DNA of 64,000 nt. It comes from a virus. Shown piece by piece: positions 18,869 through 60,621 of the stretch. The stretch is taken from IMG/VR virus record IMGVR_UViG_3300018868_001080. One strand, 5' to 3'. A program made the translations under genes and the position numbers. Each line of letters starts with the position of its first letter. Position 1 is the first letter of the stretch. The notes under the pieces are model-generated. The model did no database searches. It was not told the origin of the DNA and saw only the letters and a list, made by a program, of their open reading frames with translations.

Positions 18869-20725
18869 ATGAGTTCAACAACAAATCAAGACGCCAATCT
18901 TACAATTAATCAGCAAGGCTATGCTGCATTTGATGCCACATCATTAAAGCAGTTAATTATTGACAGGCTCAACAACGGCACACTCTTCACAGATCAAAAC
19001 TATGAGGGGAGCAATATTTCAGCAGTTATTGACATTGTTTCCTATGCTTACCATGTGCTCTTGTTTTATCTGAACAGGACAGCATCTGAAAGCTTGTTCA
19101 GCCAGGCAACACTTTATGAAAACATAAGCAAAATTGTAAAGGAATTAAATTACAAACCCATTGGGTACCAGACTGCACTTTTAAGTTTTGTGGCCACTGC
19201 TTCAAAACTTCTCATCAAAGATACATACACCATTAAAAGATATTCTTACTTCACTGTGAATGGTGTTAGCTACAGTTTCAATAGTGACGTTACTTTTGTT
19301 AAAAACACGGACACCGACGAAGCATTAACACTCTTCAGTGACAACAATTTGCTGTATCAAGGTGCGTATGTAGAATACCCGCTGTACAATGCCATAGGCG
19401 ATGATTTTGAGGCCCTCACTATAACCTATGTGGCAAATAATGCAAATCAAAAAATTGACCATTTTAACATTGATGTGTATGTGAAAGAAAAAACAACTGG
19501 CAAGTATTACAAATATGCTGAAACATCGTCACTGTTCTTGAATGATTCCAACGCGCGTGTATTTGAAAAACGTTTTGATGAAAATGAAAGATATGAAATT
19601 AAATTTGGCAATGGCATCACAGGCAGAAAGTTACAAGCTGGGGATCAAGTAGCAATATATTTCTTACAAACAGATGGTACACAAGGTGAGATAGACATTG
19701 GCATCTTAAATTCAAACAAGTTATTTTTGTACAGTTCTTTGCGGTACAACAGCATCATAGCTGATACTGTATCTGAAAATCTGCTGCTCTTGGACGACAA
19801 TCAAACCAAATACCTCACATTTTCTAACACTGACCCATCCACAAGCTATCAGGACAAAGAATCAGCCGAGCAAATCAAATCAAATGCACCCAAGATTTAC
19901 AATTCACAATACAGACTGGTTACTGCTAGTGACTATGAGGTGTTCGTAAATAGAAACTTTGCAAACATTATAAGCTCCACAAAAGCTGTTAATAACTGGG
20001 ATTACTTAAACGGGCATTTCCGATACTTTTACGACTTGCAGTTGAACAAACCCAATGATGATTCACGTGTTCTATTGAACCAGACTCGTTTTGCTGATAC
20101 TTGTGATTTTAACAATGTGTACATATATGGCATTCCACGATTGGAAAGAATCACCTCACTTACACAGCGAACAAATTATCTCAACGCTGCACAAAAAGAA
20201 CTGCTGCTCAATCAATTGCAAAACTACAAGACACTCACAGCAGAAGTAATAATAACTGACCCTGTGTATGTGGCTGTTGATTTTGGAATAAGACGGGCAG
20301 GTGAAACGTTGTCTCCTGATATAACCAACGATTGCAAGCTTGTGATAACCAAGAATGTATTGTCACAGATTGATAACCAAACTATTAAAAACAATGCATA
20401 CAACATTATAAAAACATTCTTTGACTCCAGAAACAATAGCCTGGGCATATTATTTGATATAAACGACATCACATCCCAAATTTTTAATATTGCAGGTGTG
20501 GAAGATTTTTATGTTGAGAGAACAGATGAACAGGGCACGTTTACTGTGCCTGGCTTAAATTTTCTGTTCTGGAATCCTGTGTATCCAGATGGTGATACAC
20601 AAATCATTGCTCAGAATTATCAATTGCCGTACTTCAAGTATCCCTTCTTGAATAACCCACTTGAATTTCTTAACAAAATAGAGGTGCTCGCAACAACAAA
20701 TGTTAATACAAAAATTGAGTATTAA
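18869..20725 (+). CDS. Baseplate wedge protein gp6-like
   Basis: FTDQNYEGSNIS..ID..SY, ES.FSQA...EN......LNY.P, IKFGNG..G, RLVTASDYE. Confidence 0.92.
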   Translation: MSSTTNQDANLTINQQGYAAFDATSLKQLIIDRLNNGTLFTDQNYEGSNISAVIDIVSYAYHVLLFYLNRTASESLFSQATLYENISKIVKELNYKPIGYQTALLSFVATASKLLIKDTYTIKRYSYFTVNGVSYSFNSDVTFVKNTDTDEALTLFSDNNLLYQGAYVEYPLYNAIGDDFEALTITYVANNANQKIDHFNIDVYVKEKTTGKYYKYAETSSLFLNDSNARVFEKRFDENERYEIKFGNGITGRKLQAGDQVAIYFLQTDGTQGEIDIGILNSNKLFLYSSLRYNSIIADTVSENLLLLDDNQTKYLTFSNTDPSTSYQDKESAEQIKSNAPKIYNSQYRLVTASDYEVFVNRNFANIISSTKAVNNWDYLNGHFRYFYDLQLNKPNDDSRVLLNQTRFADTCDFNNVYIYGIPRLERITSLTQRTNYLNAAQKELLLNQLQNYKTLTAEVIITDPVYVAVDFGIRRAGETLSPDITNDCKLVITKNVLSQIDNQTIKNNAYNIIKTFFDSRNNSLGILFDINDITSQIFNIAGVEDFYVERTDEQGTFTVPGLNFLFWNPVYPDGDTQIIAQNYQLPYFKYPFLNNPLEFLNKIEVLATTNVNTKIEY

Positions 20726-24240: not shown

Positions 24241-27200
24241 ATGTCTGATATTTTAGAGAACAATATACTAGCAATAACAGTAAGTGACTCTATTGTTGCA
24301 GGCACTACAAACAATGCTGTAGATTATACTAAGCCACTTTCATTCACTGAGTGGTTGGTGCGCACAAACCCAACTGAAACAGACAACTCATATTTAATTA
24401 GTCAGTATAAAATGTATTTGCTCGCTTGGTACAAGACCAAGAATTTAGATACAAAAAATACAGAAGATTTTGTAAGATCTTCTTTCATATCACTTTTACG
24501 AGAGATTTTATTGAATTATTCTACCTTAGAAGAGCGAAGATTTGTAAGCAATGCAGATTTTAATAATGACCTGGAGCTGTACTCAGTTTTGCCCTTCTTT
24601 GTTAAAAAGATAAAAGAGATTTGCAATTACTATGCTCTATTAAGACAAAACGTCAGTTTTAAAAAATACGAAAATAGCTTGAAAGGATCACAGGGCGGTG
24701 TCATTTCGGTATTAAAGAATGCAATTTATAAGAATCTACAAGCTACACAAATATCATCAGCAGAATCAAATCTACTCAATTTATCTGCAATTAAGAACAA
24801 TTTAACTCTGGAAATTAAGGAACTATTTGATGACTCTCAGTACTTTGACTTGAACCCTGCTCTGCCTGCTACAACATACAACCCCACGTTCACTTCACAA
24901 TTTTATTCTTCAAATCTCAACGAACTGGACGCTACACTGTACACTAATTTTGATCAAAGCATCATTGATGCAATAAAGACTTACCCCTTCTTCTTAAACG
25001 ATTTTAAGACACCATACTCAATCAATGTGCAAGTGCAGGCCACTGATCTGGCATATCTCAGAGACAAAGACTTCATCAATCAAATTAATAATCAAGATAA
25101 AACTAACTTGAACCTTAATCTTGAAAAAGAGTTGATAGAGAAATTTATCGGTACTGATTATTACTATGTTAGCACAGGCTCCACCATAACTGACTTCACA
25201 TCTGGTGTACTGTTTCAAGCACAAGACAAGGCAGCCAATTCGCAGAACAAGCGCTTTCCTTCTGTTGCATCTGTGCAAAATGAAGAGAATTTAAAAACCA
25301 TACGAGAAATAGGCGGTTTCTTTCTACCAGATAGACTTGGTGTCTTAAATTTCAACAATTTCAAATACACTGTGCAAATTGACGAGGCACAATTGGAACC
25401 TAACAAGATTTATATTTTTCCTGACCCATACAAATATGGTAATATTTCAAATCTCTCTCTAACGGATTTTGAGAGCCCGTTGATTTACGAAGAAGATGTC
25501 ACCTGGATGCACTATAATAGATCAGCTCAATTTCTCTTTGGTAATGTGGTAAGTAATCCCTTGTACAAAGATTTCTACGCATACCACAGCAGAAGTCAAA
25601 CAGTTGGTTATCAGCCCTATGGCATGTCTCGAGATATTGATAGCACTGAATTTTTTGAAGGCTCAGGTAAAGATGTGTGGGCAAATTCTGATGTGTTTCC
25701 TGTGATTGAAAACGTGCTACCTCTGCAGGATCGTCAATTTAATTTATTAGCAATAAACAAGACTCTCATCAAATACAAGAGTGATATTTACAGCAACAAT
25801 TATGGATTATTTAAAGAAATTAATCCTGTAGGTGTGGGACCAGATGGTAGCAATCAAGGAGATTTTATTTCAGCAGACGAATTAAATTTCTTTAATTTTA
25901 CAGGTGGACGTGGTGGTCTCAATGGCACAGGACGCAAAGGACTCACCTACAATCAATTTGATGCAATAAGATCCACACGAAAGAAACCATGCATGATACT
26001 GGATGGTTATTTATTTTTTGACATTGATGATGGGTACAACTTCAATTTTGCAATTCCTAATGCTGCAAAAAGAGTGTCTGGTGTATATACACGCACCATC
26101 ACACAGATACCACCTGGCAGTGGATACTTCACGTCTGGACCAGGTATTCTTTCTGCATCACCCACCCCATATGCTAATTATAATATTGGATACCCCTACT
26201 CTGCACCACCCACTTTCAAACCACTGCCTACACCTCTGTTGCTTGTGGCATATGGTAAAGGGCACTTCATACCTGATGATTTTTGTGATGTCAACACAGT
26301 AAATTATTGCTTGCTGTTGGATTGTGTAACATTTGTGGATGCACTGAGCAATCTCCGGTTGGATGTATCATCAGATTCATCTGCATGGTCCACATCTGTG
26401 CCTGTGTATTACAGTGAATTGCTTGAAAGCAGCTTGACAACAACTTATACTAAGCCCAACAATGTAGAGAGAGCTACGTTCTCTTACACATACCCTGCAT
26501 CTGCACAAGTTATCCAAGAGCTCAACGGTTACAGGTTCAATCTGCAAGGCCAGACACCTTGTGCTGTAACCAACAGCAACACTTCACCTGCAGCAGATTA
26601 TAATCTTGACAACACAAGCTTTGTGAACTTGCCTGTGCCACCTGCCTATGCAACACAAGTGCAAAACCTCACAACCAATAGCATAGGAAGTAAAACGATC
26701 TATTCTGGACGCAACGAGATTGTGGGTGAAATGTACTATAAAAACGCCAATACTTCACGAGTGGATTTGATACAGAATGCATTATCTGCTGTGTTTATGA
26801 AATACCCTGTTGAAGTTCGAGACAGTGTCAATAATGGCATCATAAATTTTGATTTAATCTATAATGTCATTTTCATTGAAACTGCCGATTACTATATTGT
26901 GGACAAACTAGATTATAATTATGAAGAAAATGCTGTGGAACCGTTCAACAGTGATAAGAATTTCCTATCTACTTTCATAGTAAACAAGAGCGTAGAAAAG
27001 ATAAGCAATATTTTCTATAACGAAAAATTAAATGAAGCTGTATTCACAAGGCTGGTCTTGCTGCCCACCATGAGTGCAAGCAATCTCAAAATCATATACC
27101 CTGAAATATATAAAATAGACATTACCAATCCAGTATTAAAAAAGCTGTACCCTAACTTTGATTTGAATTATAACAACTTGTCAAGCTTCATTCACATTGA

Positions 27201-28068
27201 TGCAGATACAAACATAGACCGTATTGACAAGCCAATCATGACCTATAACGAGGATTCAAAAACATACCTCATAAATTATCTGGCCAAAGACAGTAATAAT
27301 GTATTTTTTAATGTTTTTGAAGAATTTCAAATTAAAAACAGCGATGTAATTTTTCTGCAAATGGTGTTCCACAAACCAGAATATCTCATCAAAGACTACA
27401 ATTTTACAATTGTTAATTCTGCAACTGCTCTGCAAAGCAATTCAATTGCAGGTGTGCTCTCTTCTTATCAAAACATCAATACACACACATATTGGTTCTG
27501 CATGTCCACTGAACCTGTTGTCATTGTGCCAGAATATGTAGCATGTTTATATGGTGTAGTGTTTGTACCAGTGGTGACACCGACACCCACCCCCACTATC
27601 ACTCCCACACCTACCCCCACACCATCCCCCACACCTGCACCCACACCTACGGTGCCACCTTGGATCAACGCTTGCAGTACTTACAGCGTAGAAGTTACTG
27701 GTGCGGGCACACTCGCTGCAGATGGCATATATGTTCTTTCTGCTGGCGATACAACGTTCTTCAGCCCAACTCCACAGTTTACTGTGTTCTATCAATCAAC
27801 TAGTGATTCTCGTTTCTTCTTAATTGGTAACAACAGCTATCCTGACAATAGTACCATATTCAAAGGAGCCATACTCTCCACTCTCTCAGCTGCGAGTGAA
27901 AACTTCACACTTATGTATACAAGCACAGGCCTGATGCTGGATTATGCATGCGTCCCATATGGAACATATGATGCAATTGGTGGTATTGACCCTGTATACC
28001 TGGAAACACAAAACTTATCAGGCGTACCCCCATATCCCACAGTTTCATTCTACAGCATGACACAATAA
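24241..28068 (+). CDS. Large virion structural protein with Pro/Thr linker and C-terminal accessory domain
   Basis: 1275 aa; KGS..G motif near the N-terminus like gp7-type wedge proteins; [25 protein letters not shown] linker; TAAATA upstream. Confidence 0.65.
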   Translation: MSDILENNILAITVSDSIVAGTTNNAVDYTKPLSFTEWLVRTNPTETDNSYLISQYKMYLLAWYKTKNLDTKNTEDFVRSSFISLLREILLNYSTLEERRFVSNADFNNDLELYSVLPFFVKKIKEICNYYALLRQNVSFKKYENSLKGSQGGVISVLKNAIYKNLQATQISSAESNLLNLSAIKNNLTLEIKELFDDSQYFDLNPALPATTYNPTFTSQFYSSNLNELDATLYTNFDQSIIDAIKTYPFFLNDFKTPYSINVQVQATDLAYLRDKDFINQINNQDKTNLNLNLEKELIEKFIGTDYYYVSTGSTITDFTSGVLFQAQDKAANSQNKRFPSVASVQNEENLKTIREIGGFFLPDRLGVLNFNNFKYTVQIDEAQLEPNKIYIFPDPYKYGNISNLSLTDFESPLIYEEDVTWMHYNRSAQFLFGNVVSNPLYKDFYAYHSRSQTVGYQPYGMSRDIDSTEFFEGSGKDVWANSDVFPVIENVLPLQDRQFNLLAINKTLIKYKSDIYSNNYGLFKEINPVGVGPDGSNQGDFISADELNFFNFTGGRGGLNGTGRKGLTYNQFDAIRSTRKKPCMILDGYLFFDIDDGYNFNFAIPNAAKRVSGVYTRTITQIPPGSGYFTSGPGILSASPTPYANYNIGYPYSAPPTFKPLPTPLLLVAYGKGHFIPDDFCDVNTVNYCLLLDCVTFVDALSNLRLDVSSDSSAWSTSVPVYYSELLESSLTTTYTKPNNVERATFSYTYPASAQVIQELNGYRFNLQGQTPCAVTNSNTSPAADYNLDNTSFVNLPVPPAYATQVQNLTTNSIGSKTIYSGRNEIVGEMYYKNANTSRVDLIQNALSAVFMKYPVEVRDSVNNGIINFDLIYNVIFIETADYYIVDKLDYNYEENAVEPFNSDKNFLSTFIVNKSVEKISNIFYNEKLNEAVFTRLVLLPTMSASNLKIIYPEIYKIDITNPVLKKLYPNFDLNYNNLSSFIHIDADTNIDRIDKPIMTYNEDSKTYLINYLAKDSNNVFFNVFEEFQIKNSDVIFLQMVFHKPEYLIKDYNFTIVNSATALQSNSIAGVLSSYQNINTHTYWFCMSTEPVVIVPEYVACLYGVVFVPVVTPTPTPTITPTPTPTPSPTPAPTPTVPPWINACSTYSVEVTGAGTLAADGIYVLSAGDTTFFSPTPQFTVFYQSTSDSRFFLIGNNSYPDNSTIFKGAILSTLSAASENFTLMYTSTGLMLDYACVPYGTYDAIGGIDPVYLETQNLSGVPPYPTVSFYSMTQ
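27575..27660 (+). repeat. Pro/Thr (mucin-like) coding repeat
   Basis: Encodes [29 protein letters not shown]; approximate bounds. Confidence 0.9.
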
Positions 28069-28076
28069 ATAACTAA

Positions 28077-28352
28077 ATGGCCACCTTGCCCTATGTATAT
28101 GCCGAATCGTTATCAGGCTCTGTAAAATATCTTGGAGAATGTTATGTTGCAACTGGTAACAGTGGCATTATTAATGCCAAAAAAGAAGAGTTTGTAGATG
28201 CACTAACATGTGACACTTGTTTGGGCCAATCACCGTTTCCTCTGCTTTCACCCACCCCTACCATCTCTCTGACACCGGACCCCACAAGAACCCCCACCCC
28301 CACCCCCACACCTACAGTGACACCCACGGTGACACCTACACCAGCCCCATAA
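28077..28352 (+). CDS. Small protein with three Cys and a Pro/Thr-rich C-terminal tail
   Basis: 91 aa; TAAATA 5 nt upstream; CY...CxxC followed by [34 protein letters not shown]. Confidence 0.75.
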
Positions 28353-28353
28353 T

Positions 28354-29808
28354 ATGAATCTCTCTGCATCCAGATCCTTCTCTCTGCTGCCTGCAGATCA
28401 ATTGTCACCTGAAAATGATATTGTAGTTTCATTTGATTATGTGACCAATGTGTATGACAACTATTTGAATGTGTATGATAATGAATCACCATCTGAAGGA
28501 TTCTGTTTGTTCTTCTATGAAGGCAATGCACCATTGAGTGGTGGTGCACCAGGCGCAGGTCTGGGATATCTACCTGGTGCTGCCATTGTGACCAACAACA
28601 ACAATCTACTTCTTAGCGAAGGCAACAACACATTCACACCATATTATCTTACTGCATATGGCACTGCAAATGGCATGCCAGCTTACAGAGGTGATGCATC
28701 TGCACTCAGTGGTGCAAAGATTGATTTCTATATTGCTGGTTACAATGGCCTGTTTCCTAGCACGTCTGGGTGGCGAATTTGGGATGGCATAAGTAAGTAT
28801 TTTTATTACAGCAATGGTACTGCATTGTATCCCATGTGGGCCGTGAATTGGATTCATGGTCCTGACATTCAAACTGGTTGGGGATACCCCATAATCACCA
28901 GAAAAGATATGGGATACAGTTATGCAGGCAAAGCTGGTAGCTTGTTGGGAGTTGGTTTTGATTTCACAGGCAACTTCAGAGCCACTTATAATTCGTCAGC
29001 CACAGGCACTCCAGTCATCAATAATGTCACTCTTAGAAATGGTAATTATGATTACATAACAAATTCCAACAACCTTACTTCTACAAACTTTCTGCAACCC
29101 ACCATACTTTGGAATAGCTTGGCCAACAGCATGACACCAAGCATTGGCAACCGGGTCAAAGTGCGGCTAACAGACTTGGGCAAAACAATCAATGTGAAAA
29201 TACGACCACACAATAAAGATGAATATGTGGATGTGTTAACCCACAATGCACAAGATTTAGGACCAGGCAACACCACAGACAGTGTCAAAGTGGGGTTGAA
29301 CTTCTCTTCACTCAACAACACAGAGTTTGGTGTTCGTAATTTTAACATTGCAGGTGTAGCTGCTACAGCAACACCCACTGTGACACCTACACCTACACTC
29401 ACACCCACTGTGACACCCACCAGGACACCTACTGCAACACCTGGCGCATCACCAACTGCAACACCAACTGTAACACCCACTCCCACACGCACTGTGACGC
29501 CTACTAACACGGCCACACCCACTGTGACGCCTACTAACACGGCCACACCCACTGTGACGCCTACCATAACTGTGACACCCACCATATCACAAACACCAGG
29601 TGCATCACCCACAGCGACACCTACTGCGACACCTACACTCACACCACCACCTTCAGTTACACCTACTGCAACACCCACTGTGACACCTACTGCAACACTC
29701 ACACCTACACCTACTGTGACACCCACAACATCTGCACTGCCATCACCGTTCCCTGCAGGCGCACCAATCACTGATGGTATCATTGTGGGCATAGGTAATA
29801 TCCTATAA
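28354..29808 (+). CDS. L-type (legume-like) lectin domain protein with long mucin-like Pro/Thr stalk
   Basis: EGFCLFF...[10 protein letters not shown]...LGVGFD..GNF...VKVGL.FS matches the L-lectin pattern; about 120-aa TP-rich tract. Confidence 0.7.
29365..29730 (+). repeat. Pro/Thr coding repeat including a perfect 30-bp tandem repeat (x2.5)
   Basis: ACTGTGACGCCTACTAACACGGCCACACCC at 29491-29520 and 29521-29550, partial copy to 29564; outer bounds approximate. Confidence 0.9.
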
Positions 29809-29811
29809 ATA
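29804..29811 (+). promoter_or_regulatory. T4-type late promoter TATAAATA
   Basis: Exact consensus overlapping the upstream stop codon, 12 nt before ATG 29824. Confidence 0.6.
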
Positions 29812-29823
29812 ACATCATTCATC

Positions 29824-31311
29824 ATGGCCATCTACAATCCATTATACCTGAATAGCAGCACCAACACGTGGACTGCTGTTGATAACACATTGTCTGCAGA
29901 TCCTATGCACACAAGAACTGTGATGTATTCGGGTGATCGCTTGTTTTTTGGTGGTAACTTCATATACAATTTTACCAATGCCAACAATGTTGCTAATTTT
30001 CAACTGCCAGCCAAATCATACCAAGTGGGTTGTGTGGGGTACTTTGACACTACTATCAACCGCATTCAATCCATTGGTGCAATTGGCACATTTACAGAGC
30101 AAGCGTATTGCAATAGTGCGGCATGTGAAGCTCTGAGCACGTTTGACTTGCAGAATTCAGTCAATTGCTTAACTCTGTGTGGTGCAAATCTGGTGGCAGC
30201 AGGCTATTTCAAATCCATTAACACACAAATCACGGGGTTTCAAGCGCTTACTGCAATGCCCACAAGCATTTGGTTTGAATTATCTGATACTCCACCATTC
30301 AACACTGGTATTCTTTCTGGTCAAGTTATTACTGTGCCTCAATACAATCTAATATTCACCAACTTATATACCATGGGACTGGCAACTAGCTTCATGCCCA
30401 AACTGTCTGGTAATCCTGCCGTGAACATTGCATACTACAGCCCAACTATTGGCAGGTGGCAGGCATTTCCCAACACCACCAATGTAGATTTTAGCAGCGG
30501 TGTATTTTTAGCATGTGAAACCTACAACAATATAGTATATGCAACTGGATTTGGCACTGGTATATCTGGCGGTCTCTACTACAACAGTGGCAATCAATGG
30601 AACCAAGTAACACCATCCATTTCAAACAATTGTGAAAACACATCCGACACACCTACAGGCTTCTTTCTGTACAACGACCAGCGTGGCAATTTAATATACT
30701 GCGGATCATTTGATAGCTATACTGGTGATACCGCCAAATCTGGCATAATGAAATATAATGGCAGTGTGTTCAGTGCCATTGGCAATGGTTTTGATGGGTC
30801 ACCCAATCCATATGCAACTTGTGCAATGGTGACGCTATCTGGTGACAACTACATTGCAGTAGGCAATTTTCCAGATAAAATTGCTTGGATAAATCGCAGC
30901 ACTGGCACAACTTGGACCAAACTCTACAATGGTACTGCGGCTGCAGCGGGGTTTATTACAGCTGATACTATCGCATGCATGGATTTGTCGGGTAATAACA
31001 TGGTGTTTGGTGGCGCATTCGATTTAGATCCAGCCACCCCTAATACCAATGGTGTTGCTGCAATAACTAATAACAATGTCACAGGCATGCCGCAAGATAT
31101 ATATGGTATAGATGATCTCTTTGCTTTGGGACGCTTACCACGAGTGTTGTTTGCCAATGTGCCTGTGGACTATTCTGTGAACACCACAATTGCTGCAGAT
31201 TTTACTACTGCAATATTGCAAAGCCACCGTGACACAATGCTCACCACCAGCGGCATATCTGCATATAGCACAGCACCCTACCAAGGTGTTGATGGCATCA
31301 TAATAACATAA
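29824..31311 (+). CDS. Beta-propeller virion protein
   Basis: Repeated blades LFFGGNF, LVAAGYF, LIYCGSF, IAVGNF, MVFGGAF with W-containing strands. Ends DGIIIT, like the DGIIVG near the end of the previous gene. Confidence 0.65.
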
Positions 31312-31344
31312 TAGCATTTTGCGCAGCATGTTGTAAAATACAAC

Positions 31345-32592
31345 ATGGACAGCATATACATTCAAATTGCATCGTATAGAGATCCACAATTAATTGTTAC
31401 TCTTCGAGATTGCATTGCCAATGCTGCACATCCAGAGTTGTTGCATTTTGGTATTTGCTGGCAACATGATGAGAAGGATAGCTTGGAAGAATTTGCAAAT
31501 GATGCACGATTCACTATTATAGATGTGCCATATCAAAAAAGTAAAGGTGTTTGTTGGGCAAGAAGCACCATTCAAAACCATTATCGAGGTGAAAAGTATA
31601 CTCTGCAGCTAGACAGTCACCATCGATTCACTAAAAATTGGGATACTACTCTCATCAAAATGATAAAACAATTGCAGAAAAAGGGTCACAAGAAACCACT
31701 ACTGACTGCTTACTTACCTAGTTTTGACCCAGACAATGACCCAGCATTACGTATTAATACACCATGGAAGATGAACTTCGACCGGTTCATACCTGAAGGT
31801 GCTGTGTTCTTCATACCTGCTTCAATTGACAATTTCAAAGATTTGCATGAGCCTGTGCCTGCACGGTTCTATTCTGCACACTTCTGCTTCACTTTGGGCA
31901 AGTTTTGCAAAGAAGTTCCACATGATCCAGATTATTATTTTCATGGTGAAGAGATTAGCATTGCTGTGCGCGCTTTTACACATGGGTATGATTTGTTCCA
32001 TCCACACCAGGTGGTTGTATGGCATGAGTACACCCGCAAGGGGCGGACCAAGCATTGGGATGATGATAAGGATTGGGGCAAGCGCAACGAACTGTGTCAT
32101 CTACGCAACCGCAAACTGTTTGAAATGGATGGTGAAAAAAAGGACATTGACTTTGGGCCTTACGATTTTGGTAGCAAGAGAACTCTCAAGGATTATGAAA
32201 AATATGCAGGTCTCAGTTTCAAGAAACGCGCTGTGCAACAGTACACTGTGGACCATCACTTGGCACCAAACCCATACACTTTTAAACATGAAAAAGAATG
32301 GGAAGCATCATTTCTTCAGATTTTTAAGCATTGCATTGATGTGCGTTATGAGCAAGTGCCTGAAAAAGATTACGACTTCTGGTGTGTGGCTTTCAAGGAT
32401 AAAGAAGGCAAGGATGTGTATCGCAAGGATGCAGACAAAGATGAGATTCAGCGTATGTTTCACGATCCAGACAAGTACTGCAAAGTTTGGGGAGAGTTTA
32501 ATTGTGAAGCCATGCCTGCAAGTTGGTTAGTGTGGCCTCATAGCATAAGCAAAGGATGGGCAGAGCCCATCACTGGTACTATTGGTCAATAA
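31345..32592 (+). CDS. GT60-family polypeptide/[Skp1]-hydroxyproline N-acetylglucosaminyltransferase-like enzyme
   Basis: I.IQIASYRD, SKG.CWAR, LQLDSH.RF..NWD, F.GEEI....R..THGYD.F.P....WH.Y: the hallmark motifs of the GlcNAc-T (GT60) family. Confidence 0.9.
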   Translation: MDSIYIQIASYRDPQLIVTLRDCIANAAHPELLHFGICWQHDEKDSLEEFANDARFTIIDVPYQKSKGVCWARSTIQNHYRGEKYTLQLDSHHRFTKNWDTTLIKMIKQLQKKGHKKPLLTAYLPSFDPDNDPALRINTPWKMNFDRFIPEGAVFFIPASIDNFKDLHEPVPARFYSAHFCFTLGKFCKEVPHDPDYYFHGEEISIAVRAFTHGYDLFHPHQVVVWHEYTRKGRTKHWDDDKDWGKRNELCHLRNRKLFEMDGEKKDIDFGPYDFGSKRTLKDYEKYAGLSFKKRAVQQYTVDHHLAPNPYTFKHEKEWEASFLQIFKHCIDVRYEQVPEKDYDFWCVAFKDKEGKDVYRKDADKDEIQRMFHDPDKYCKVWGEFNCEAMPASWLVWPHSISKGWAEPITGTIGQ

Positions 32593-32604
32593 TATTGTAA
32601 GGTA

Positions 32605-33615
32605 ATGAAAGCAAAGATAAGGATTCACAGACCAGAGAATATACAGTGGGGCAGATACCATACACCATGGTTTAGATATTTTAAAACATTCCTAGAACAA
32701 CACTTTGATGTGGAGTGTTTAACTTATGACAGCAGAGAGGACTTGGGGTATGCGCATATAGAATTAGCTTGCAAAGACAATATTGGCTTGCAACCCACTG
32801 TGAGCGATGTTGATACCCTCATAGAGAATCTTGAAACTGGTGATTTTGTTGTGTTGAGTTTTACTGAGTACTTTAACCATAGAAATGTTCATTACTTGAA
32901 ATCAATGCATTGTAAAAAAATACTCTTGGCACATTTTAGTTATCATAATATTTACCATTGGTTAAAAGCTGATAGACTATTACACAGAATTGATGCAGTT
33001 TCACCTTGGTTTTTTGGTTGGATGGAAGAGTTTGATATTAATTCATGCAGAGATTATAAGAATCAAGTTACAGAATTTTGCACTGACAAAATGTTCTGGA
33101 AGGGATCAGGATGGCGAGGTGGTGATGCGGCTTATAGAAAAGTTGTTAATTTATTGAAAGAAAAAGGATTGGTTGATCCAGATTCAATGAATCATGATCA
33201 ATATATGAAGGAACTCGCCAGACACAAAATCGCTTTATCCTATTATTTAGATTTGTCCATGTACAGCACACCATATGATCACCCAGGTGAGTTTTGCTAC
33301 AGAGACATGGAATACATGTCCATAGGCGTGCCATTTATCCGCATTGAATACAGGGATGCAGTTTATGATGGTCTGATACCCAATTACCATTACATTGCCA
33401 TACCTAGAGACAAAGCATACGTTGAGTACTCTAAAAACGGTGATGCTGGAGTTGCAAATATAATTGAACAAAAATTTAACGAAGTTAAAAATGATGATGA
33501 TTTCTTAAAGTTCATATCAAAAAATCAACTTGAATGGTTTGACAAATATGCCAATTTACCCAACAGTTTAGACTTTACTTTTAAGCTGACCGGGATAAAT
33601 AATTGGATCCAATAA
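32605..33615 (+). CDS. Putative GT-B-type glycosyltransferase
   Basis: FWKG...YR...Y..EL..HKIAL....GEFCYRD.EY...GVP pattern of GT1_2/exostosin-like C-domains. Confidence 0.6.
   Translation: MKAKIRIHRPENIQWGRYHTPWFRYFKTFLEQHFDVECLTYDSREDLGYAHIELACKDNIGLQPTVSDVDTLIENLETGDFVVLSFTEYFNHRNVHYLKSMHCKKILLAHFSYHNIYHWLKADRLLHRIDAVSPWFFGWMEEFDINSCRDYKNQVTEFCTDKMFWKGSGWRGGDAAYRKVVNLLKEKGLVDPDSMNHDQYMKELARHKIALSYYLDLSMYSTPYDHPGEFCYRDMEYMSIGVPFIRIEYRDAVYDGLIPNYHYIAIPRDKAYVEYSKNGDAGVANIIEQKFNEVKNDDDFLKFISKNQLEWFDKYANLPNSLDFTFKLTGINNWIQ
33577..33608 (+). repeat. 32-bp direct repeat, copy 1
   Basis: ACTTTTAAGCTGACCGGGATAAATAATTGGAT. Confidence 0.9.
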
Positions 33616-33616
33616 T

Positions 33617-34240
33617 ATGAGTAACATGGAGAGGGTAGTTTTAAAAGAGAGTGATTTTACCGCAAAATGCAATGCAATCAAAGATCTTTTCTTTTTTCAA
33701 ATAGGCGCAAACGATGGCATTAGTGTAGATCCAATTCATAAATTAGTACAAGAACACAATTGGAGTGGAATATTGATTGAACCTGGCATTGATGCTTTCA
33801 ATGCTCTCAAACAAAACTATAGTACACAATCTAATTTAATTTTTGAGAATTCTGCAGTTACCAATGTGGATGGTGATATAGTGTTGTGGTGTGGCACGAC
33901 AACCCCTCATTTTACTCTAGATTATCAAAAAGCTGTTAACATGTTTGATGTTCAACCAAAACCTACAACTGTAAATGGTGTCAAATCAGCAACACTACTA
34001 AAAAAACATAATGCACTGAAAGTAGATCTTCTGCAAATAGATGCAGAGGGACATGACTTTGTAATACTAAAGGACTGGCCATTTGATTCGTATCGCCCCA
34101 AAATAATTAGATTTGAATTCATAAATTTAAACGATTCATTCCATGAATGTATAGGGTTTATAAAAAATCTTAATTATCAAATATTTTATTCTGAAGACGG
34201 TGCTGATGTAATTGCACTATGTAATAATTATGAATTTTGA
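33617..34240 (+). CDS. FkbM-family SAM methyltransferase
   Basis: QIGANDG..DP, W.GILIEP, N.AV, DLLQIDAEGHD..IL, P..I.FE. Confidence 0.92.
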   Translation: MSNMERVVLKESDFTAKCNAIKDLFFFQIGANDGISVDPIHKLVQEHNWSGILIEPGIDAFNALKQNYSTQSNLIFENSAVTNVDGDIVLWCGTTTPHFTLDYQKAVNMFDVQPKPTTVNGVKSATLLKKHNALKVDLLQIDAEGHDFVILKDWPFDSYRPKIIRFEFINLNDSFHECIGFIKNLNYQIFYSEDGADVIALCNNYEF

Positions 34241-34349
34241 AAAAATAGAACTATGGGACAAGCAATATTATGCTGCTCATGTAGGTATTATTGTTAACAA
34301 TATGATTAGCACTTTTAAGCTGACCGGGCTAAATAATTGGATAAAATGA
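34230..34349 (+). pseudogene. 39-codon chimeric gene remnant
   Basis: MNFEKIELWDKQYYAAHVGIIVNNMISTFKLTGLNNWIK*; the last 12 residues copy the C-terminus of the 32605..33615 product. Confidence 0.55.
34311..34342 (+). repeat. 32-bp direct repeat, copy 2 (1 mismatch)
   Basis: ACTTTTAAGCTGACCGGGCTAAATAATTGGAT. Confidence 0.9.
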
Positions 34350-35068
34350 GTATGCTTTGCTATTCAACAGCTTCATATGGATGCAAATACTATAACGCAA
34401 CAAATAAGCTTATAGAATCGCTCAATATTATTGAAAGCAAAAAATTACCTACAATTTTTGTTATGACGGATAAAGTGGACGCTATAACCAAACACCCAAA
34501 CGTTTTCGTAAAGGATATCAATGACTATAACCCAAAATATTCTACTTATAATGACAATTACTATAGATACAACGCAACTGCACACCGATACAATGTTTTG
34601 CACGCCTTAGAAAATGGTTATACTAATATCACGTACATGGATACAGATTTGTTATTTTTACCAAATTTTGATTTAGATATAGTGGAGACTTTCTTTGAGC
34701 CAAATACAGTTGCAGGTGAATCTATGTATGAGTTTAAAGATTATTTTATTGGTGCGATGTTAGGCAAGCGTTTTGCTAGTTATTACAAGCATTTTGAAGG
34801 TAGCGAAAATTTAGATCAATTTAAAGATATGGTTATGCCTGATGATAGGTTAATTTATTACAGCTTTCGTGATGTTAATCACGGTAAAGAATATGTGGAA
34901 TGGTGGGGCAAATGTAGTGATTATAGAGAACAGGCTGTTTTAGGTTGCGCTCCAGTAGGCAATTTAGATGAGAATTGTTTTTGCGCATACAAAACAGGCA
35001 TGAAAGTAGAACCAAGCCATACTGCATATAAGTACAAAATGACAGTAAACGATCACGTTACGCATTAA
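34346..35068 (+). CDS. Putative GT-A fold (DxD) glycosyltransferase/nucleotide-diphospho-sugar transferase
   Basis: IFVMTD and ITYMDTD (DxD) motifs; start set to ATG 34346, which overlaps the TGA of the remnant ORF. Confidence 0.55.
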   Translation: MSMLCYSTASYGCKYYNATNKLIESLNIIESKKLPTIFVMTDKVDAITKHPNVFVKDINDYNPKYSTYNDNYYRYNATAHRYNVLHALENGYTNITYMDTDLLFLPNFDLDIVETFFEPNTVAGESMYEFKDYFIGAMLGKRFASYYKHFEGSENLDQFKDMVMPDDRLIYYSFRDVNHGKEYVEWWGKCSDYREQAVLGCAPVGNLDENCFCAYKTGMKVEPSHTAYKYKMTVNDHVTH

Positions 35069-35075
35069 GATAAAT

Positions 35076-35708
35076 ATGGAAGATCAGAAAATTACAGGCT
35101 GCTGTACGTACAACGGTGTACTGGCTATGCAAAGACCAGAAGTCTTTGATGTATTTAAGGAGTTTATTACAGCAGTCCGACCATCTAGAGTTGTAGAAAT
35201 AGGCACAGCAGCTGGCGGTTTGACTCTTTGTATAAGAGATATTTTTAATGAGATTGGATTGCAAGATGCGCCTGTTAGAACTTTTGATGTCAATCCTGAT
35301 CAGTGGCGTGAAAAAGCTTTTGAAAATAAAAATATTGAGCTACACTTAGAAAATATATTTGGTCCTTGCGATGAAGAACCAATCAACATGGTTCTATCTT
35401 TAACAAAACCCGAACTCATAGTACCCTTCATTCAAGCACCTGGAATAACCTTAGTTTTATGTGATGGTGGAAACAAGAGAGGCGAGTTTAATTGCTTGGC
35501 TCGCTATTTAAAACCAGGTGATATAATTATGGCTCATGATTATATTAGTAACTTGAATGAGTTTCAAGATCATTACATAAATAAAATTTGGAATTGGTTA
35601 GAGATATGTGACATTGATATACAAGGACATACCGAGAAATATAATTTAAAGCCTTTTTGGCAGGATAAATTTGACAAAGTTGTCTGGGTTTGTAGGCAGA
35701 AACAATGA
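35076..35708 (+). CDS. Class I SAM methyltransferase (CmcI/Methyltransf_24-like)
   Basis: VVEIGTAAGG, V..FD, LVLCDGG.K..EF, LKPGDII..HDY. Confidence 0.85.
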   Translation: MEDQKITGCCTYNGVLAMQRPEVFDVFKEFITAVRPSRVVEIGTAAGGLTLCIRDIFNEIGLQDAPVRTFDVNPDQWREKAFENKNIELHLENIFGPCDEEPINMVLSLTKPELIVPFIQAPGITLVLCDGGNKRGEFNCLARYLKPGDIIMAHDYISNLNEFQDHYINKIWNWLEICDIDIQGHTEKYNLKPFWQDKFDKVVWVCRQKQ

Positions 35709-37372
35709 ATCAAAATATTACGCTTGTAACAGGTATTTTTGATTTGGGAAGAGATAAAGCCGGTGAAGGATTCAAGCGACCCTTCACCCATTATATTGTA
35801 AAATTTACAGAACTCTTGAGAGCAACTAAAAATTATAACATGGTTGTGTATATTGAAGAAAGATACAAAGATTTAGTGTTAGATATCAGAGATCCACACA
35901 ACACACAAATTCGTATCAAAGAAATTGATGAGTTCAAAACGAACTTTCCTTTTTATAACAATACTACAGAAATAAGAAACAAAGACAGTTGGTTGAACCA
36001 AACTGGTTGGCTGCGTGAGAGTACTCAAGCAACCATGGAGCTATACAACCCTATGGTTATGTCCAAGATGTTCATGCTGCATGATGAGAAGGTTAGAAAT
36101 TCCTTCAATACAGATTATTTTTATTGGATTGATGGTGGATTAACAAGCACTGTGCATCATGGTTATTTTTCAAAAGATAAAGTCTTGGACAAGATACCAA
36201 AAATTACAGATAAATTTCTTTTCATAGCATTCCCTTATGCAGAGGGTAATGAGATACATGGTTTCACAAGAACAAAAATGAATGAAATGGCTCAAACAAA
36301 AAATGTTGAGTATGTTTGCCGTGGGGGATTCTTTGGTGGCCATAAAAATAACATATCAGACATCAACGGCATATACTACTCTCTTTTGAGCAACACGCTT
36401 AACGAGGGATACATGGGCACAGAAGAGAGCATCTTCACGCTCATGACATACACACACCCGCATTTGTTTGCAAAACACATGATAGATGGTAATGGCCTAA
36501 TTAATAAATTTTTCGAAGATGTAAAGACCACCACATTCACTGAGAATACAATCACATTGAACAATTACTCAGGTGTTAACCTGTATGTGTTGTCATTCAA
36601 CTCACCAGAACAGTTTGAAAAATTAATTGAAAGTTATTTGAAGCAACCTGGTTTTGTACGTGAAACAAAGAATATTCTAATAGATAACAGTACCAACCCT
36701 GCAGTTAATGACAAGTATGTGGAGCTTTGTGCAAAATTTAACTTTGAACACATCAAAAAGAATAACATTGGCATATGTGGTGGTAGACAATTTGTTGCAG
36801 AGCACTTCGATTCAACAGATGCCAAGTACTATATGTTTCTAGAGGATGACATGAATTTATGCAGCGAGGATCTAAAGACCTGCAAAAACGGGTTTTCGAG
36901 ATGTATTGACAATTTATATTACAAGATTCAAAAAATTATGGATAAAGAGGATTACGACTTTCTTAAACTATCATACACTGAATTCTTTGGCGACAACACA
37001 ACACAATGGTCATGGTACAATGTACCGCAGTCCATAAGAGAATTGTACTGGCCAGATAAACATGTACTGCCTGTGCATGGCTTGGATCCAAATTCACCCA
37101 AGACAATCTTCAAGCATATTGGAAGCATGGATGGGTTGAGCTACATTGATGGTGAGGTGTATTATTGCAACTGGCCTCAAATTGTATCACGAGCTGGTAA
37201 CAAGAGAATGTTTCTGAGTACCAAGTGGGGACATCCCTTTGAACAGACATGGATGTCATTCATGTATCAGTTAACCAAGAAAGACATGTTGAGAGGTGCA
37301 GTTTTATTGGCATCCCCTATAAATCATGAAAGATTTGCCTTTTATAAAAGTGAAGAGAGACGAGAAAACTAA
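35705..37372 (+). CDS. HtrL/YibB-family domain fused to a GT2-like domain
   Basis: N-terminal TLVTG.FD.GR, YFYWIDGG, GGFFGG, TEE (HtrL); C-terminal LIDNS, N.GICGGR, Y..F.EDDM (GT-A). Confidence 0.8.
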   Translation: MNQNITLVTGIFDLGRDKAGEGFKRPFTHYIVKFTELLRATKNYNMVVYIEERYKDLVLDIRDPHNTQIRIKEIDEFKTNFPFYNNTTEIRNKDSWLNQTGWLRESTQATMELYNPMVMSKMFMLHDEKVRNSFNTDYFYWIDGGLTSTVHHGYFSKDKVLDKIPKITDKFLFIAFPYAEGNEIHGFTRTKMNEMAQTKNVEYVCRGGFFGGHKNNISDINGIYYSLLSNTLNEGYMGTEESIFTLMTYTHPHLFAKHMIDGNGLINKFFEDVKTTTFTENTITLNNYSGVNLYVLSFNSPEQFEKLIESYLKQPGFVRETKNILIDNSTNPAVNDKYVELCAKFNFEHIKKNNIGICGGRQFVAEHFDSTDAKYYMFLEDDMNLCSEDLKTCKNGFSRCIDNLYYKIQKIMDKEDYDFLKLSYTEFFGDNTTQWSWYNVPQSIRELYWPDKHVLPVHGLDPNSPKTIFKHIGSMDGLSYIDGEVYYCNWPQIVSRAGNKRMFLSTKWGHPFEQTWMSFMYQLTKKDMLRGAVLLASPINHERFAFYKSEERREN

Positions 37373-37384: not shown

Positions 37385-38074
37385 GTGAACACTGTTACAG
37401 TTAATCTGTCTTCTGTACAAGACCCAGGTGATATTGTAATGTACAATCATTACTGGTTTTCCGACCCTTTATCTGGTACAAATATTGCCTATCCAGTGAC
37501 TGCAAATGGTGACTTCTTTACATATAGCACCACACCCACAGTAACAGCTGATGATGGTCTCTTTTTTCCGTGGGGGTATCTCTTTGATGACACGTTTGAG
37601 ACCATATATGCAGGTAAATACAAAGGTCTTACAACTTTAAATTTTAATGCATCCGGACTGTCCACAGCATACTTTCCAATCTTGCGCATATATTATGAGT
37701 TTGGTGATGGTACAGTGTACAACAACTCCAGAAATGTGTTGATTGATTACTCCAAGCTTGCCATTGATTCGTTCATAAATGGTTATGGCTATGGTGACCC
37801 CAAGTTTATACCTGTAATGCATACGTATCAACCTAGTGATACTACATTCTCTGTTACATACACTGCACATGTGCAGGTATTCAATGGCAGCTTGGTCACA
37901 AACAATTTCTACATCATCATTGATATTGTGCAAGACTCCATATTTGATTTTGATGATATAAATTTACTGGACACAAAATTCATATCATTATCTGAAAAAA
38001 CCATCATAAACGTGCTTGAAGCCTCAAACCCTGAATATATTCTAAATAATCTTTTAAAATATAGTAATACCTAG
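37385..38074 (+). CDS. Virion protein with PKD-like domain
   Basis: YEFGDGT...HTY motif; TAAATA 5 nt before GTG. Confidence 0.6.
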   Translation: MNTVTVNLSSVQDPGDIVMYNHYWFSDPLSGTNIAYPVTANGDFFTYSTTPTVTADDGLFFPWGYLFDDTFETIYAGKYKGLTTLNFNASGLSTAYFPILRIYYEFGDGTVYNNSRNVLIDYSKLAIDSFINGYGYGDPKFIPVMHTYQPSDTTFSVTYTAHVQVFNGSLVTNNFYIIIDIVQDSIFDFDDINLLDTKFISLSEKTIINVLEASNPEYILNNLLKYSNT

Positions 38075-44267: not shown

Positions 44268-46202
44268 ATGGCAGTATTTGAAGTAACAGACAAGACAATT
44301 CTTAAGATCCTCGTGAGACGGGGTCTTGAAGAAGAGCGTGCTTTTGTTCGCCTGGATGAAGGTGAACTTGCTTACACCATAGACACCAAGCGAGTGTTTG
44401 TGGGTGACGGGCTGGGTGGTGGTGGCAATGTGGTGGGCAATCTGTACCAAGGTGCATTTCCTGATGTGGATACTGTGATAGGTTCAGTTGCTGGCTTGCA
44501 ACCTGGAGATACTTTCTATGATACAACTGAATCCACACTGTATGCATTGGGTGAAGATGCTAGCACAAAATTTGACATACACCCACGATATGAAGAGTTA
44601 GTGCTCGAGAAAACCACTTCACCCATTGGCAGATTGAGAATATCTGAAAGTGTATTTGGCAAGAGTGTCATTGGTGTGACTAACTATCGCAAAGCTTTCT
44701 ACTTTGATTATAATACAACTGAACAATTTTATGGTACATACAGAGTGATGGAATTGAATACAAACTATTGGGCCATCACTTCCAAGACTGCTTTCAACCC
44801 TGCAAACAATGATGGTGTATTTTATTTTGGCAACATCAACAGCATTGCACCAGGTCAGGTCAAAAGTGATCTGGATTACAGAATTAATATTAATTGTGCT
44901 GGTCTCAACAAAGGTGCTCTCATTGTGTATGGCACAGGCACAGATGTGTTCACCATTGGTGCAGGTGGTGAGATAGGCAATGCACTGGGCATAACCAGCA
45001 TCATTGGTGCCAGCGGCATTCAATTCTTCCCTGGCACTGACAACAAAAATGACCCATCCAAGAGCGCTCTGTTCTTGAGCTCCTCAGGCACAGCATACTT
45101 TCAGAAAACTGGTGGTTCTGTGCAGCAGCCTGCCTTGTTGGTGGATGGTTTCAGCAGATTCACAAACAGTGTCATGATTGACAACAATTTGCTCATTGTG
45201 GGCAATCTCACTGCACTGGGTGACTTCACAGTGCTGGACACACTAGTAACTACATCTTCTGCGTTGTCTGTGATCAATTCCTCCAACAACACTGCATTCA
45301 CAGTGAGACAAGAGAACAGCAGCAGCTTGTATAATACTGCACTGTTTAGCAACTACAATATACCTAGTAACCGAGTAATCATTGACCGTTATTGCAATGC
45401 TTCATTTGGGACTGGACTTGGTTTGGTCAGCAGAAGTAGCGGCACCACTAACACTGCTGCCATGTCATCCATATTGGTGGCAGGAGGACTCTTTGTTAGA
45501 GATGTGTCTGTGACTGACCATGGTGGATTCAATGTGAGTGTGCGAGGCAGCTCACAACTGCAATCTGGCTTTAATTTCATTGACGGTAGCAATAGTGGTA
45601 ATTACATTTCGAAAGGGCGAGGTATACCAACTTACATGCCAACCAATTTGACATTGCTTGTGGATGGTGTGGATGCTAGCCAAAGTGCAGTCAAAATACT
45701 GAGCCGCCCTACCTATGGTGCAGACTACCCTGCATTAGTTGTTGCATCTGATCAAGCAACTGGCAATGCAACTCATCCTTTGTTCAGTGGCAGATTCAAT
45801 GGTGCTGCTGGTACCCCCAACGCTGGCACACAAACATCAATGATTGCTTCTGACGGCAGTTTTCAATTCAGTGGCAATGGCACAGTGGGAGGCAAGTTGG
45901 ATGTGACTCTTGACATCACTGCATTCTATAGCTCTGATGAAAGACTCAAGGACAATGTGCAAGTGCTGGAATCATCTCTGGAGAAAATTGATAAAATTCG
46001 AGGTGTAAGCTTTGATTGGGCAGCAGATGCACCACATGCAGGCCATGATGTGGGAGTCATTGCACAAGAAATTGAAAAAGTGCTGCCAGAAGTGGTGATC
46101 ACCAGAGAAAATGGCATGAAAGCTGTGAAATATGAAAAACTGGTGCCTTTGCTCATTGAAGGCATCAAAGATCTACATAAATTAATCAAATGCCGCTCCT
46201 AA
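44268..46202 (+). CDS. Tail fibre with Mtd-N-like anchor and C-terminal peptidase S74 intramolecular chaperone
   Basis: ILVRRG...LDEGELAYTIDTKRVFVGDG; C-terminal SSDERLKDN...IRGVSFDW...GVIAQEIEKVLPEVV...AVKYEKLVPLLIEGIK. Confidence 0.9.
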   Translation: MAVFEVTDKTILKILVRRGLEEERAFVRLDEGELAYTIDTKRVFVGDGLGGGGNVVGNLYQGAFPDVDTVIGSVAGLQPGDTFYDTTESTLYALGEDASTKFDIHPRYEELVLEKTTSPIGRLRISESVFGKSVIGVTNYRKAFYFDYNTTEQFYGTYRVMELNTNYWAITSKTAFNPANNDGVFYFGNINSIAPGQVKSDLDYRININCAGLNKGALIVYGTGTDVFTIGAGGEIGNALGITSIIGASGIQFFPGTDNKNDPSKSALFLSSSGTAYFQKTGGSVQQPALLVDGFSRFTNSVMIDNNLLIVGNLTALGDFTVLDTLVTTSSALSVINSSNNTAFTVRQENSSSLYNTALFSNYNIPSNRVIIDRYCNASFGTGLGLVSRSSGTTNTAAMSSILVAGGLFVRDVSVTDHGGFNVSVRGSSQLQSGFNFIDGSNSGNYISKGRGIPTYMPTNLTLLVDGVDASQSAVKILSRPTYGADYPALVVASDQATGNATHPLFSGRFNGAAGTPNAGTQTSMIASDGSFQFSGNGTVGGKLDVTLDITAFYSSDERLKDNVQVLESSLEKIDKIRGVSFDWAADAPHAGHDVGVIAQEIEKVLPEVVITRENGMKAVKYEKLVPLLIEGIKDLHKLIKCRS

Positions 46203-46828: not shown

Positions 46829-46868
46829 GCAGTGATGGATTTTTTTGTCTGCATCAGTAAATTATATC

Positions 46869-48173: not shown

Positions 48174-48175
48174 GT

Positions 48176-49667: not shown

Positions 49668-49670
49668 TAT

Positions 49671-51095: not shown

Positions 51096-51132
51096 TATAT
51101 TAATTTAGTATGTGTTATAAGTTATCATAGGC

Positions 51133-53318: not shown

Positions 53319-53328
53319 AAATAGGCAT

Positions 53329-58099: not shown

Positions 58100-58140
58100 T
58101 TTACTACTAAATTAATTAATCGTATAAAGATCGAAGTCAA

Positions 58141-60321: not shown

Positions 60322-60360
60322 GGCATTCCATATAATTTAAGTAAATACCTTAAGATTTCT

Positions 60361-60591: not shown

Positions 60592-60621
60592 TTTTGCAGT
60601 ATTCAGTATATATTTGAATAT

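Follow-up and report, generated by a model that had tools for sequence, protein, structure and literature searches.

A candidate phage-encoded mucin-type O-glycosylation system that pairs a GT60 transferase with Pro/Thr-repeat proteins

Virus-encoded glycosylation of virions is known from mycobacteriophages and chloroviruses, and the chemistry of GT60 glycosyltransferases is known from protists. Apart from giant viruses, mycobacteriophages are, to our knowledge, the sole documented case in which phage particles are self-glycosylated, and the enzymes and targets there differ from those considered here. The mycobacteriophage work, by Freeman et al. in 2023, reportedly concerns phage-encoded glycosylation of the capsid or tail tube. 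In these phages, as in the chlorovirus PBCV-1 with its major capsid protein, the virus's own glycosyltransferases and methyltransferases decorate virion proteins in the host cytoplasm. The protist GT60 enzymes (TcOGNT1/2 of Trypanosoma cruzi; the Golgi pp-alphaGlcNAcT and the cytosolic Gnt1 of Dictyostelium) belong to PF11397 and have a DxH...H metal site and a GT27-like GT-A fold. Characterised members form N-acetylglucosamine (GlcNAc)-alpha-O-Thr on Thr/Pro-rich, mucin-like proteins or modify cytosolic Skp1 (PMC9472816, PMC8724618), and GT60 and GT27 have in common the DxH motif and the O-glycosylation of polypeptide Ser/Thr (PMC7185993). On Skp1, the soluble and cytosolic Gnt1 is followed by PgtA, a two-domain bifunctional enzyme (PMC8724618). 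Here we analyse a 64,000-nucleotide (nt) stretch of viral DNA (the window; IMG/VR record IMGVR_UViG_3300018868_001080), in which three genes with Pro/Thr (PT) tracts lie directly upstream of a GT60 gene, such that Ser/Thr/Pro-rich acceptor candidates are encoded together with a putative initiating transferase.

We consider it moderately probable that the phage uses the products of this locus to O-glycosylate its own Thr/Pro stalks in the cytoplasm, in the manner of mucins. With a confidence that falls somewhat short of even, we further propose that GT60 and a tandem GT-A protein of the HtrL type form the core of an undescribed mucin-type O-glycosylation pathway on Thr/Pro repeats that is widespread in prokaryotes and phages. 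Its targets in phages would be the stalks of virion appendages, with a glycan that is diversified by a swappable cassette; in bacteria they would be mucin-like proteins with twin-arginine signals, which could be glycosylated in the cytoplasm and exported folded. The GT60 systems of protists and the GT27 systems of animals would then have in this pathway a prokaryotic counterpart and possibly their origin.

A putative initiating enzyme and its conserved partner

The original prediction, a reading of the DNA without database searches, had recognized a GT60 enzyme in the gene at 31345-32592 by its motifs and had proposed a profile search as a check. The motifs (IASYRD, DSH and GEE) are present, and the protein matches PF11397 far above threshold (E 1.9e-73, 248.4 bits against a cut-off of 21) as well as phrog_24687 (E 6e-178). 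In an alignment of 47 sequences, D90-S91-H92 of the DxH...H metal site is nearly invariant and H227 is invariant. An AF2 model (pLDDT 96) comprises a GT-A catalytic domain and, at the C terminus, an additional small beta domain that spans some 95 amino acids (aa; residues 320-415). Its top-ranked Foldseek matches in the Protein Data Bank (PDB) are all GT27 polypeptide N-acetylgalactosamine (GalNAc) transferases (GalNAc-T1/2/4/7/10/12, PGANT9 and TgGalNAc-T3; E 2e-9 to 1e-7), which, together with the shared DxH motif, bears out the kinship that had been claimed; a PDB sequence search returned no solved GT60 structure. Profile and model indicate that the protein is a true member of GT60 with a fold like that of polypeptide GalNAc-transferases, and family precedent predicts a retaining transfer of GlcNAc from uridine diphosphate (UDP)-GlcNAc to Thr/Ser or hydroxyproline (Hyp).

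Compared with the protist GT60 enzymes, the phage protein has its own C-terminal beta domain, prokaryotic homologues and an HtrL-type partner, and its activity, donor sugar and acceptor are predicted. The animal GT27 enzymes, its best structural matches, have in common with it the DxH motif and the principle that Ser/Thr/Pro tracts are densely glycosylated; they differ in CAZy family, in their anchoring in the Golgi membrane and in a ricin-type lectin domain, and are 11-18% identical to the phage enzyme. Among GT60 relatives, some jumbo phages (G055-G058; for example, G056:C1:26535-29034) encode two tandem paralogues that are 58-60% and 43-45% identical to the window enzyme, and in some metagenomic proteins (P0126 and P0130), which reach 2461 aa, two or four GT60 domains are fused.

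The tandem GT-A protein encoded at 35705-37372 had been described as an HtrL-glycosyltransferase fusion, and both parts were found. Its N terminus matches HtrL_YibB (PF09612; E 4e-16, 59.8 bits against a cut-off of 24.1), and its second GT-A domain has an invariant E380-D381-D382. Because the Pfam cut-off is reached and that of the NCBIfam equivalog TIGR02192 is missed (66.6, below 264.9), the sequence points to a member of the HtrL family, and no YibB orthologue, fused to a second GT-A domain. A model of the protein (pLDDT 86) consists of two GT-A domains, and its best Foldseek matches are two-domain transferases (Mimivirus R699, LH3, COLGALT1, LARGE1, the K4 chondroitin polymerase K4CP and the heparosan synthase PmHS2); no solved relative was found by PDB sequence search.

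GT60 was found in 328 IMG/VR viral loci and in 4661 clusters at 50% identity; the best 80 of the viral loci, with enzymes 65-87% identical, were studied. In 75 of these 80, the tandem GT-A protein accompanies GT60, either across a variable block of 2-6 kilobases (kb) or directly upstream. The conserved unit is GT60 plus this partner, which the original prediction had overlooked. In its architecture, the pair parallels Gnt1 and PgtA; a literature search for a link between GT74 and HtrL was uninformative.

PT-tract proteins in a probable late gene array

As had been noted from the DNA, PT repeats occur in three consecutive genes (starting at 24241, 28077 and 28354; products P0001, P0002 and P0003), and translation gives tracts of 38, 37 and about 134 residues, respectively. 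The co-orientation noted for the PT and enzyme genes also held: all are on the plus strand, flanked by the gp6-like wedge gene on one side and by more large structural genes on the other. P0001, the gene for which comes after the wedge gene and that of a PKD-domain protein, has its tract between the body and a C-terminal domain of about 130 aa, and its homologues are syntenic in 17 GT60 loci. P0002 is the simplest candidate acceptor; in its homologue from the nearest relative (L001), the PT tail is 100 aa long. P0003 has TPTVTPT-type tracts at about aa 336-394 and 408-469 (nt ~29359-29760), and a likeness of its N-terminal domain to L-type lectins is a lead only. At the DNA level, the tracts are imperfect tandem repeats of 6, 12, 24 or 30 nt, one of which is 98% identical across 2.7 copies. 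PHROGs gave no match for the PT proteins beyond one low-complexity hit, and a PDB sequence search with the P0001 profile gave no solved relative.

The protein encoded between P0003 and GT60, which the original prediction called a propeller, had no Pfam or PHROG match. The 229-aa protein on the other side of the enzyme block has no PT tract in the window, and homologues in at least 11 related loci have long ones. A fourth PT tract in the window (about 61 residues; 63567-63998) is read in a frame overlapping the end of the gene at 62809-63621, reaches the window end and has no start codon of its own ahead of the repeat.

TAAATA boxes, which resemble T4 late promoters, stand 8-26 nt upstream of 15 of the 45 plus-strand genes, against 0.5 expected. 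Genes preceded by a box include the sheath gene and those at 24241 (box at 15 nt), 28077 (11 nt), 29824 (20 nt, with a full TATAAATA box), 33617, 37385 (11 nt) and 38103; GT60 starts 33 nt after the end of the 29824 gene. Terminator-like sites between 24000 and 43900 are not more frequent than expected by chance. The shared boxes and this lack of an excess of terminator-like sites make late co-expression of the enzymes with virion genes likely. The GT60 block sits in the late structural array, and the modification of virion proteins by its products is predicted from this gene position.

Association of GT60 with PT tracts

At least 573 genome loci, from many phyla, encode GT60 relatives. In the 80 best bacterial loci, we scored open reading frames (ORFs) whose PT tract comprises 50 residues or more (PT ORFs) as near if they lay within 2 kb of the core formed by GT60 and its partner. 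There were 24 PT ORFs near the core (271 kb) and 16 farther out (798 kb), a 4.4-fold enrichment (binomial p 3.8e-6). The enrichment was also found with a stricter filter of at least 90 PT residues (12 versus 4; p 4.5e-5) and in large chromosomal contigs only (7 versus 3; p 0.0016), and PT ORFs adjoin GT60 in 22 of 72 bacterial loci, from 8 phyla. This internal control, near against far, is the strongest argument for a functional tie of PT proteins to GT60.

Many of the bacterial PT proteins start with a twin-arginine motif of the RRxLLQALG type that is followed by a hydrophobic stretch. The locus of the isolate Jiulongibacter sediminis JN14-9, which has no phage genes, encodes a UDP-glucose dehydrogenase, an epimerase/dehydratase, a second GT60, a PT protein with a twin-arginine translocation (Tat) signal, GT60, a carbamoyltransferase and an FkbM-HtrL-GT-A fusion. 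Because PT proteins beside GT60 carry twin-arginine-type signals, their sequences suggest glycosylation in the cytoplasm and then export by the Tat route.

The bacterial PT proteins vary at both ends. Twin-arginine examples are that of J. sediminis (L266 8947-9735, RRKLLQALG) and those of L250, L259, L284, L285, L298, L304, L311 and L317; some of the bacterial proteins end in a membrane anchor or in a segment that, by eye, resembles a sorting domain of the type IX secretion system (T9SS) type. In two Gemmatimonadaceae loci (L261 8438-9232 and L265 9212-9952), the PT protein by GT60 has another conserved N-terminal domain (MNPIARTDRLIKQ...CCLN...W..CDG), which, judged by eye, we take to resemble a PqqD-type domain for the recognition of ribosomally synthesized and post-translationally modified peptides (RiPPs).

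The original prediction had proposed co-occurrence of GT60 with PT-repeat genes across related phages as a test, and the outcome is divided; the counts in its favour are given here and those on the other side are weighed below. In the lineage of the window, 77 relatives were fetched with a profile of the P0001 body (a single-protein search gave just 3 loci). Among 51 entries with at least 6 kb of downstream sequence, the window included, 20 had GT60 and PT, none had GT60 only, 2 had PT only and 29 had neither. Across whole records, in which PT was scored with a (TP)4 DNA pattern, PT was present in 19 of 19 GT60-positive records versus 6 of 29 GT60-negative ones, and in 0 of 3 near-complete GT60-negative genomes. 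PT ORFs of the window clade lie within 2 kb of the enzyme block in 27 cases and farther off in 1. Outside this clade, 3 of 4 other long GT60-positive contigs were PT-rich (90, 41 and 13 pattern hits), versus 0 of 5 GT60-negative controls.

Cultured phages have the same enzyme pair. The Xanthomonas and Stenotrophomonas jumbo phages XacN1 (ORF334/ORF330), Xoo-sp13 and RAS14 encode GT60 (47-51% identity), a carbamoyltransferase and a tandem GT-A protein that is 39-41% identical to the window's partner over its full length. These genes are convergent with one that comes after the baseplate wedge genes and encodes a giant protein (3148-3315 aa; ORF325 in XacN1) with a PT tract close to its C terminus. 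This group differs from the window phage in its gammaproteobacterial hosts, in the carbamoyltransferase between the two enzymes and in its short tract (37-47 aa). XacN1 virions showed at least two Schiff-stained glycoprotein bands, the identity of which is not stated and which were tentatively ascribed to the two glycosyltransferases of the phage (PMC5852040). In the unannotated record of Stenotrophomonas phage CM1, a GT60 match alone was seen.

Other large GT60 phages, such as that of the IMG/VR contig L038 (3300042349_000834), have the enzyme pair in an island (1-21251 in L038) with a UDP-galactopyranose mutase, an ATP-grasp enzyme, FkbM, GT2 and a subtilase; the island also encodes a PT-rich 690-aa protein and an actin-like protein of the 'volactin' family (E 6e-66).

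A cassette swapped between fixed enzymes

Nucleotide homology between the window and its nearest relative covers the PT genes and GT60, ends at the GT60 stop codon and returns 19 nt before the start of the tandem GT-A gene. Because homology breaks and resumes at these points, the intervening DNA is a cassette that has been swapped between two fixed enzymes. Cassette homologues are sporadic in the 80 viral loci: the GT-B-like protein has them in 22, FkbM in 12, the DxD protein in 1 and the CmcI-like protein in 23. All of the cassette enzymes are predicted to be soluble and without signal peptides, and GT60 is also predicted to be soluble.

The calls that had been made from the DNA for the cassette proteins held to different degrees. 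For the first, 'GT-B-like' protein, there is a structural lead (an ESM Atlas structure with a TM score of 0.6-0.65 to GT1/GT4; model pLDDT 0.61), and no Pfam match or solved relative by PDB sequence search. One of the two proposed methyltransferases, FkbM, lies above the thresholds (PF05050 E 1.4e-17, 64.8 bits against 22.7; TIGR01444 46.8 against 37.7), and the other, CmcI-like, scores narrowly below them (FtsJ 24.0 against 24.1; CmcI 22.1 against 23.2). The DxD protein has the motif YMDTDLLF, as had been seen, and no Pfam or NCBIfam match; its sequence makes it possibly a further GT-A transferase. Each copy of the direct repeat that brackets the FkbM gene holds a TAAATA box.

Proposed pathway and alternative explanations

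In the pathway that we favour, the soluble GT60 would act late in infection and place the first sugar, by family precedent alpha-GlcNAc from UDP-GlcNAc, on Thr (or Ser) of the PT tracts. The acceptors would be the baseplate-region proteins P0001, P0002 and P0003, that is, repeat stalks; in the mycobacteriophage and PBCV-1 systems they are capsid or tail-tube proteins, with no reported GT60 or PT-repeat acceptors. The two-domain GT-A protein would extend the glycan by two steps or as a repeating disaccharide, and the cassette (GT-B-like protein, FkbM, DxD protein and CmcI-like protein) would add a further sugar and O-methyl caps. Because the cassette is swappable, close relatives would differ in their outer glycan. 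Stalks would probably be stiffened, shielded from proteases or masked as a result.

The self-glycosylation that had been predicted from the DNA is favoured by the fold of GT60, the solubility of the enzymes, the late array, the association of GT60 with PT tracts and the Schiff-positive virions of XacN1. Several observations weigh against it. In the tree of the baseplate protein, GT60 and PT each change about twice (2 independent pairs; sign test not significant), and with about two independent changes the window lineage alone proves little. The other 62 viral GT60 loci have 2 PT ORFs near and 18 far, with no enrichment near GT60. G055 and the GT60-positive G009 (54% complete) have no PT pattern, and partial records that are PT-rich without GT60 include L097, L102, G038 and the G046 group. 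A search based on the large terminase subunit (TerL) for the jumbo lineage returned just close relatives, mostly on short contigs, and gave no clean GT60-negative control. No TAAATA box precedes the GT60 gene itself, gene position and promoter boxes are the basis for the predicted place of the three PT proteins in the virion, and the literature searched contains no characterised prokaryotic or phage GT60. PT linkers are also common, and unmodified, in secreted bacterial enzymes.

Two of the PT-rich records without GT60, both from the window lineage, encode an RCC1-like propeller and very long PT proteins (L102 14527-22922 and L097 13066-21920; up to 1409 aa, with 329-543 PT residues in total), with no GT60 anywhere in their 57-75-kb records. 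In these phages, either another transferase serves the PT proteins or the PT stalks go bare.

An alternative, which we judge unlikely, is that the enzymes synthesize or modify a glycan other than one on protein (host lipopolysaccharide (LPS), capsule, exopolysaccharide, or a free or lipid-linked oligosaccharide), with a role in superinfection exclusion or receptor masking, and that the PT tracts are bare linkers. The fold of the partner also matches the polysaccharide polymerases K4CP, PmHS2 and LARGE1, and HtrL/YibB is named after a gene of the Escherichia coli LPS-core cluster. Other GT60 phage islands encode a UDP-galactopyranose mutase and sugar-nucleotide enzymes, and both the distance of PT genes from GT60 in the 62 loci and the PT-rich relatives that lack GT60 would fit. 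Of the window genes covered by the scan, none was found to encode a flippase, Wzy-type polymerase, ABC exporter or priming phosphoglycosyltransferase, and the enzymes are all soluble, which makes a membrane-linked polysaccharide pathway less likely. In addition, each characterised GT60 acts on polypeptide, the fold search ranks polypeptide GalNAc-transferases best, and PT genes are enriched beside GT60 in bacteria of 8 phyla.

It is distinctly improbable, in our estimation, that the enzymes glycosylate proteins at sites other than the PT tracts, in other virion proteins (capsid or tail tube) or in host proteins. Such acceptors would agree with the unstated identity of the XacN1 bands, with the phage and giant-virus precedents (mycobacteriophages and PBCV-1), which concern capsid proteins, and with the GT60-positive records that have no PT pattern. 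PT genes adjoin GT60 in the window clade and in bacterial chromosomes alike, however, and the known GT60 acceptors are Thr/Pro-rich mucin-like sequences.

We give little credence to a Hyp route, in which the PT prolines would be hydroxylated before GT60 adds GlcNAc, as Gnt1 does on Skp1. Gnt1 is a cytosolic GT60 that acts on Hyp, and the window encodes two PhyH-family dioxygenases (51133-51801 and 57347-58099), but these genes lie about 14-20 kb off in a separate island with radical S-adenosylmethionine (SAM) enzymes, no match to a prolyl 4-hydroxylase family was found in the window, and no hydroxylase adjoins the GT60/PT loci examined in bacteria.

Modification of phage DNA, as when T4 glucosylates hydroxymethylcytosine, would suit a T4-like phage, because T4-like phages glycosylate DNA (PMC5852040), but we reject it as highly improbable on family, fold and gene context: GT60 and its partner are GT-A enzymes unrelated to the GT-B DNA glucosyltransferases, no cassette protein has a Pfam or PHROG match to the T4 alpha- or beta-glucosyltransferase families, FkbM and CmcI-type methyltransferases are not base-modifying families, and the genes belong to the late structural array and are apart from those of nucleotide metabolism, with the same cassette beside PT proteins in bacterial chromosomes.

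If self-glycosylation of PT stalks is the correct reading, a GT60-initiated mucin-type coat on tail or baseplate stalks would be a second, widespread kind of phage glycosylation, with consequences for adsorption, for resistance to proteases, for the way in which grazers or antibodies recognize the particles and for the proteomic identification of virion proteins. The cassette swap between fixed enzymes suggests that selection diversifies the glycan, as it does O-antigens. From the bacterial loci, mucin-like proteins with Tat signals emerge as candidate substrates of cytoplasmic enzymes, which would be a route to bacterial 'mucins', and these systems are relevant to how mucin-type O-glycosylation arose in eukaryotes. 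Cultured systems with the pairing exist in XacN1, Xoo-sp13, RAS14 and J. sediminis.

Features and source of the window

Table 1 Coordinates of features in the window
Feature	Position	Strand	Remarks
T4-type large terminase	1227-2930		Marker of T4-like affiliation
Tail sheath	3572-5881		
gp6-like baseplate wedge	18869-20725		PKD-domain protein also before the 24241 gene
P0001, 1275-aa baseplate-region protein	24241-28068	+	PT tract at about aa 1107-1144 (nt ~27559-27672)
P0002, 91-aa protein	28077-28352	+	54-aa head, 37-aa PT tail (aa 55-91)
P0003, 484-aa protein	28354-29808	+	N-terminal domain of ~335 aa, PT tract of ~134 aa, short hydrophobic tail
495-aa protein ('propeller' of the original prediction)	29824-31311	+	Poorly conserved: 46% identity in nearest relative
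GT60/PF11397 glycosyltransferase	31345-32592	+	Putative initiating polypeptide HexNAc-transferase
Swapped tailoring cassette, ~3.1 kb	32587-35685	+	No nucleotide homology to closest relative; flanks 77-79% identical
336-aa GT-B-like protein (lead only)	32605-33615	+	First cassette gene
37-nt direct repeat	33577-33613 (copy 1), 34311-34347 (copy 2)	+	92% identity; brackets FkbM gene
FkbM-family methyltransferase (PF05050)	33617-34240	+	Flanked by 37-nt direct repeat
243-aa protein with YMDTDLLF (DxD)	34337-35068	+	Likely true start ATG at 34346
210-aa class-I SAM methyltransferase-like protein	35076-35708	+	CmcI/rhamnosyl O-methyltransferase-like, weak
555-aa tandem GT-A glycosyltransferase	35705-37372	+	HtrL_YibB domain and second GT-A domain with EDD
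229-aa protein	37385-38074	+	Directly 3' of the enzyme block

The window, a contig, comes from an uncultured myovirus that is distantly T4-like: its terminase is just 34-38% identical to those of cultured T4-like phages, and a megablast search of 50,697 records of cultured phages found no nucleotide match to the region. The nearest relative is a 217-kb IMG/VR contig (L001/G014) that is rated 100% complete. The TAAATA boxes, the scarcity of Shine-Dalgarno sequences (absent from most starts) and the nearest chromosomal GT60 homologues, which are from Bacteroidota (52-56% identity), hint at a possible host in that phylum.

A second enzyme island (46190-61269) lies behind a fibre gene with an S74 chaperone (44268-46202). 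It encodes GT8, GT32-like, GT2 and GT31 (Galactosyl_T) transferases and a PIG-L GlcNAc deacetylase, as well as four radical SAM/SPASM proteins, the two PhyH dioxygenases and a protein of the Trp-halogenase family (E 1.8e-77). This island may belong to the same virion-tailoring theme, and PIG-L would suit a GlcNAc-based glycan.

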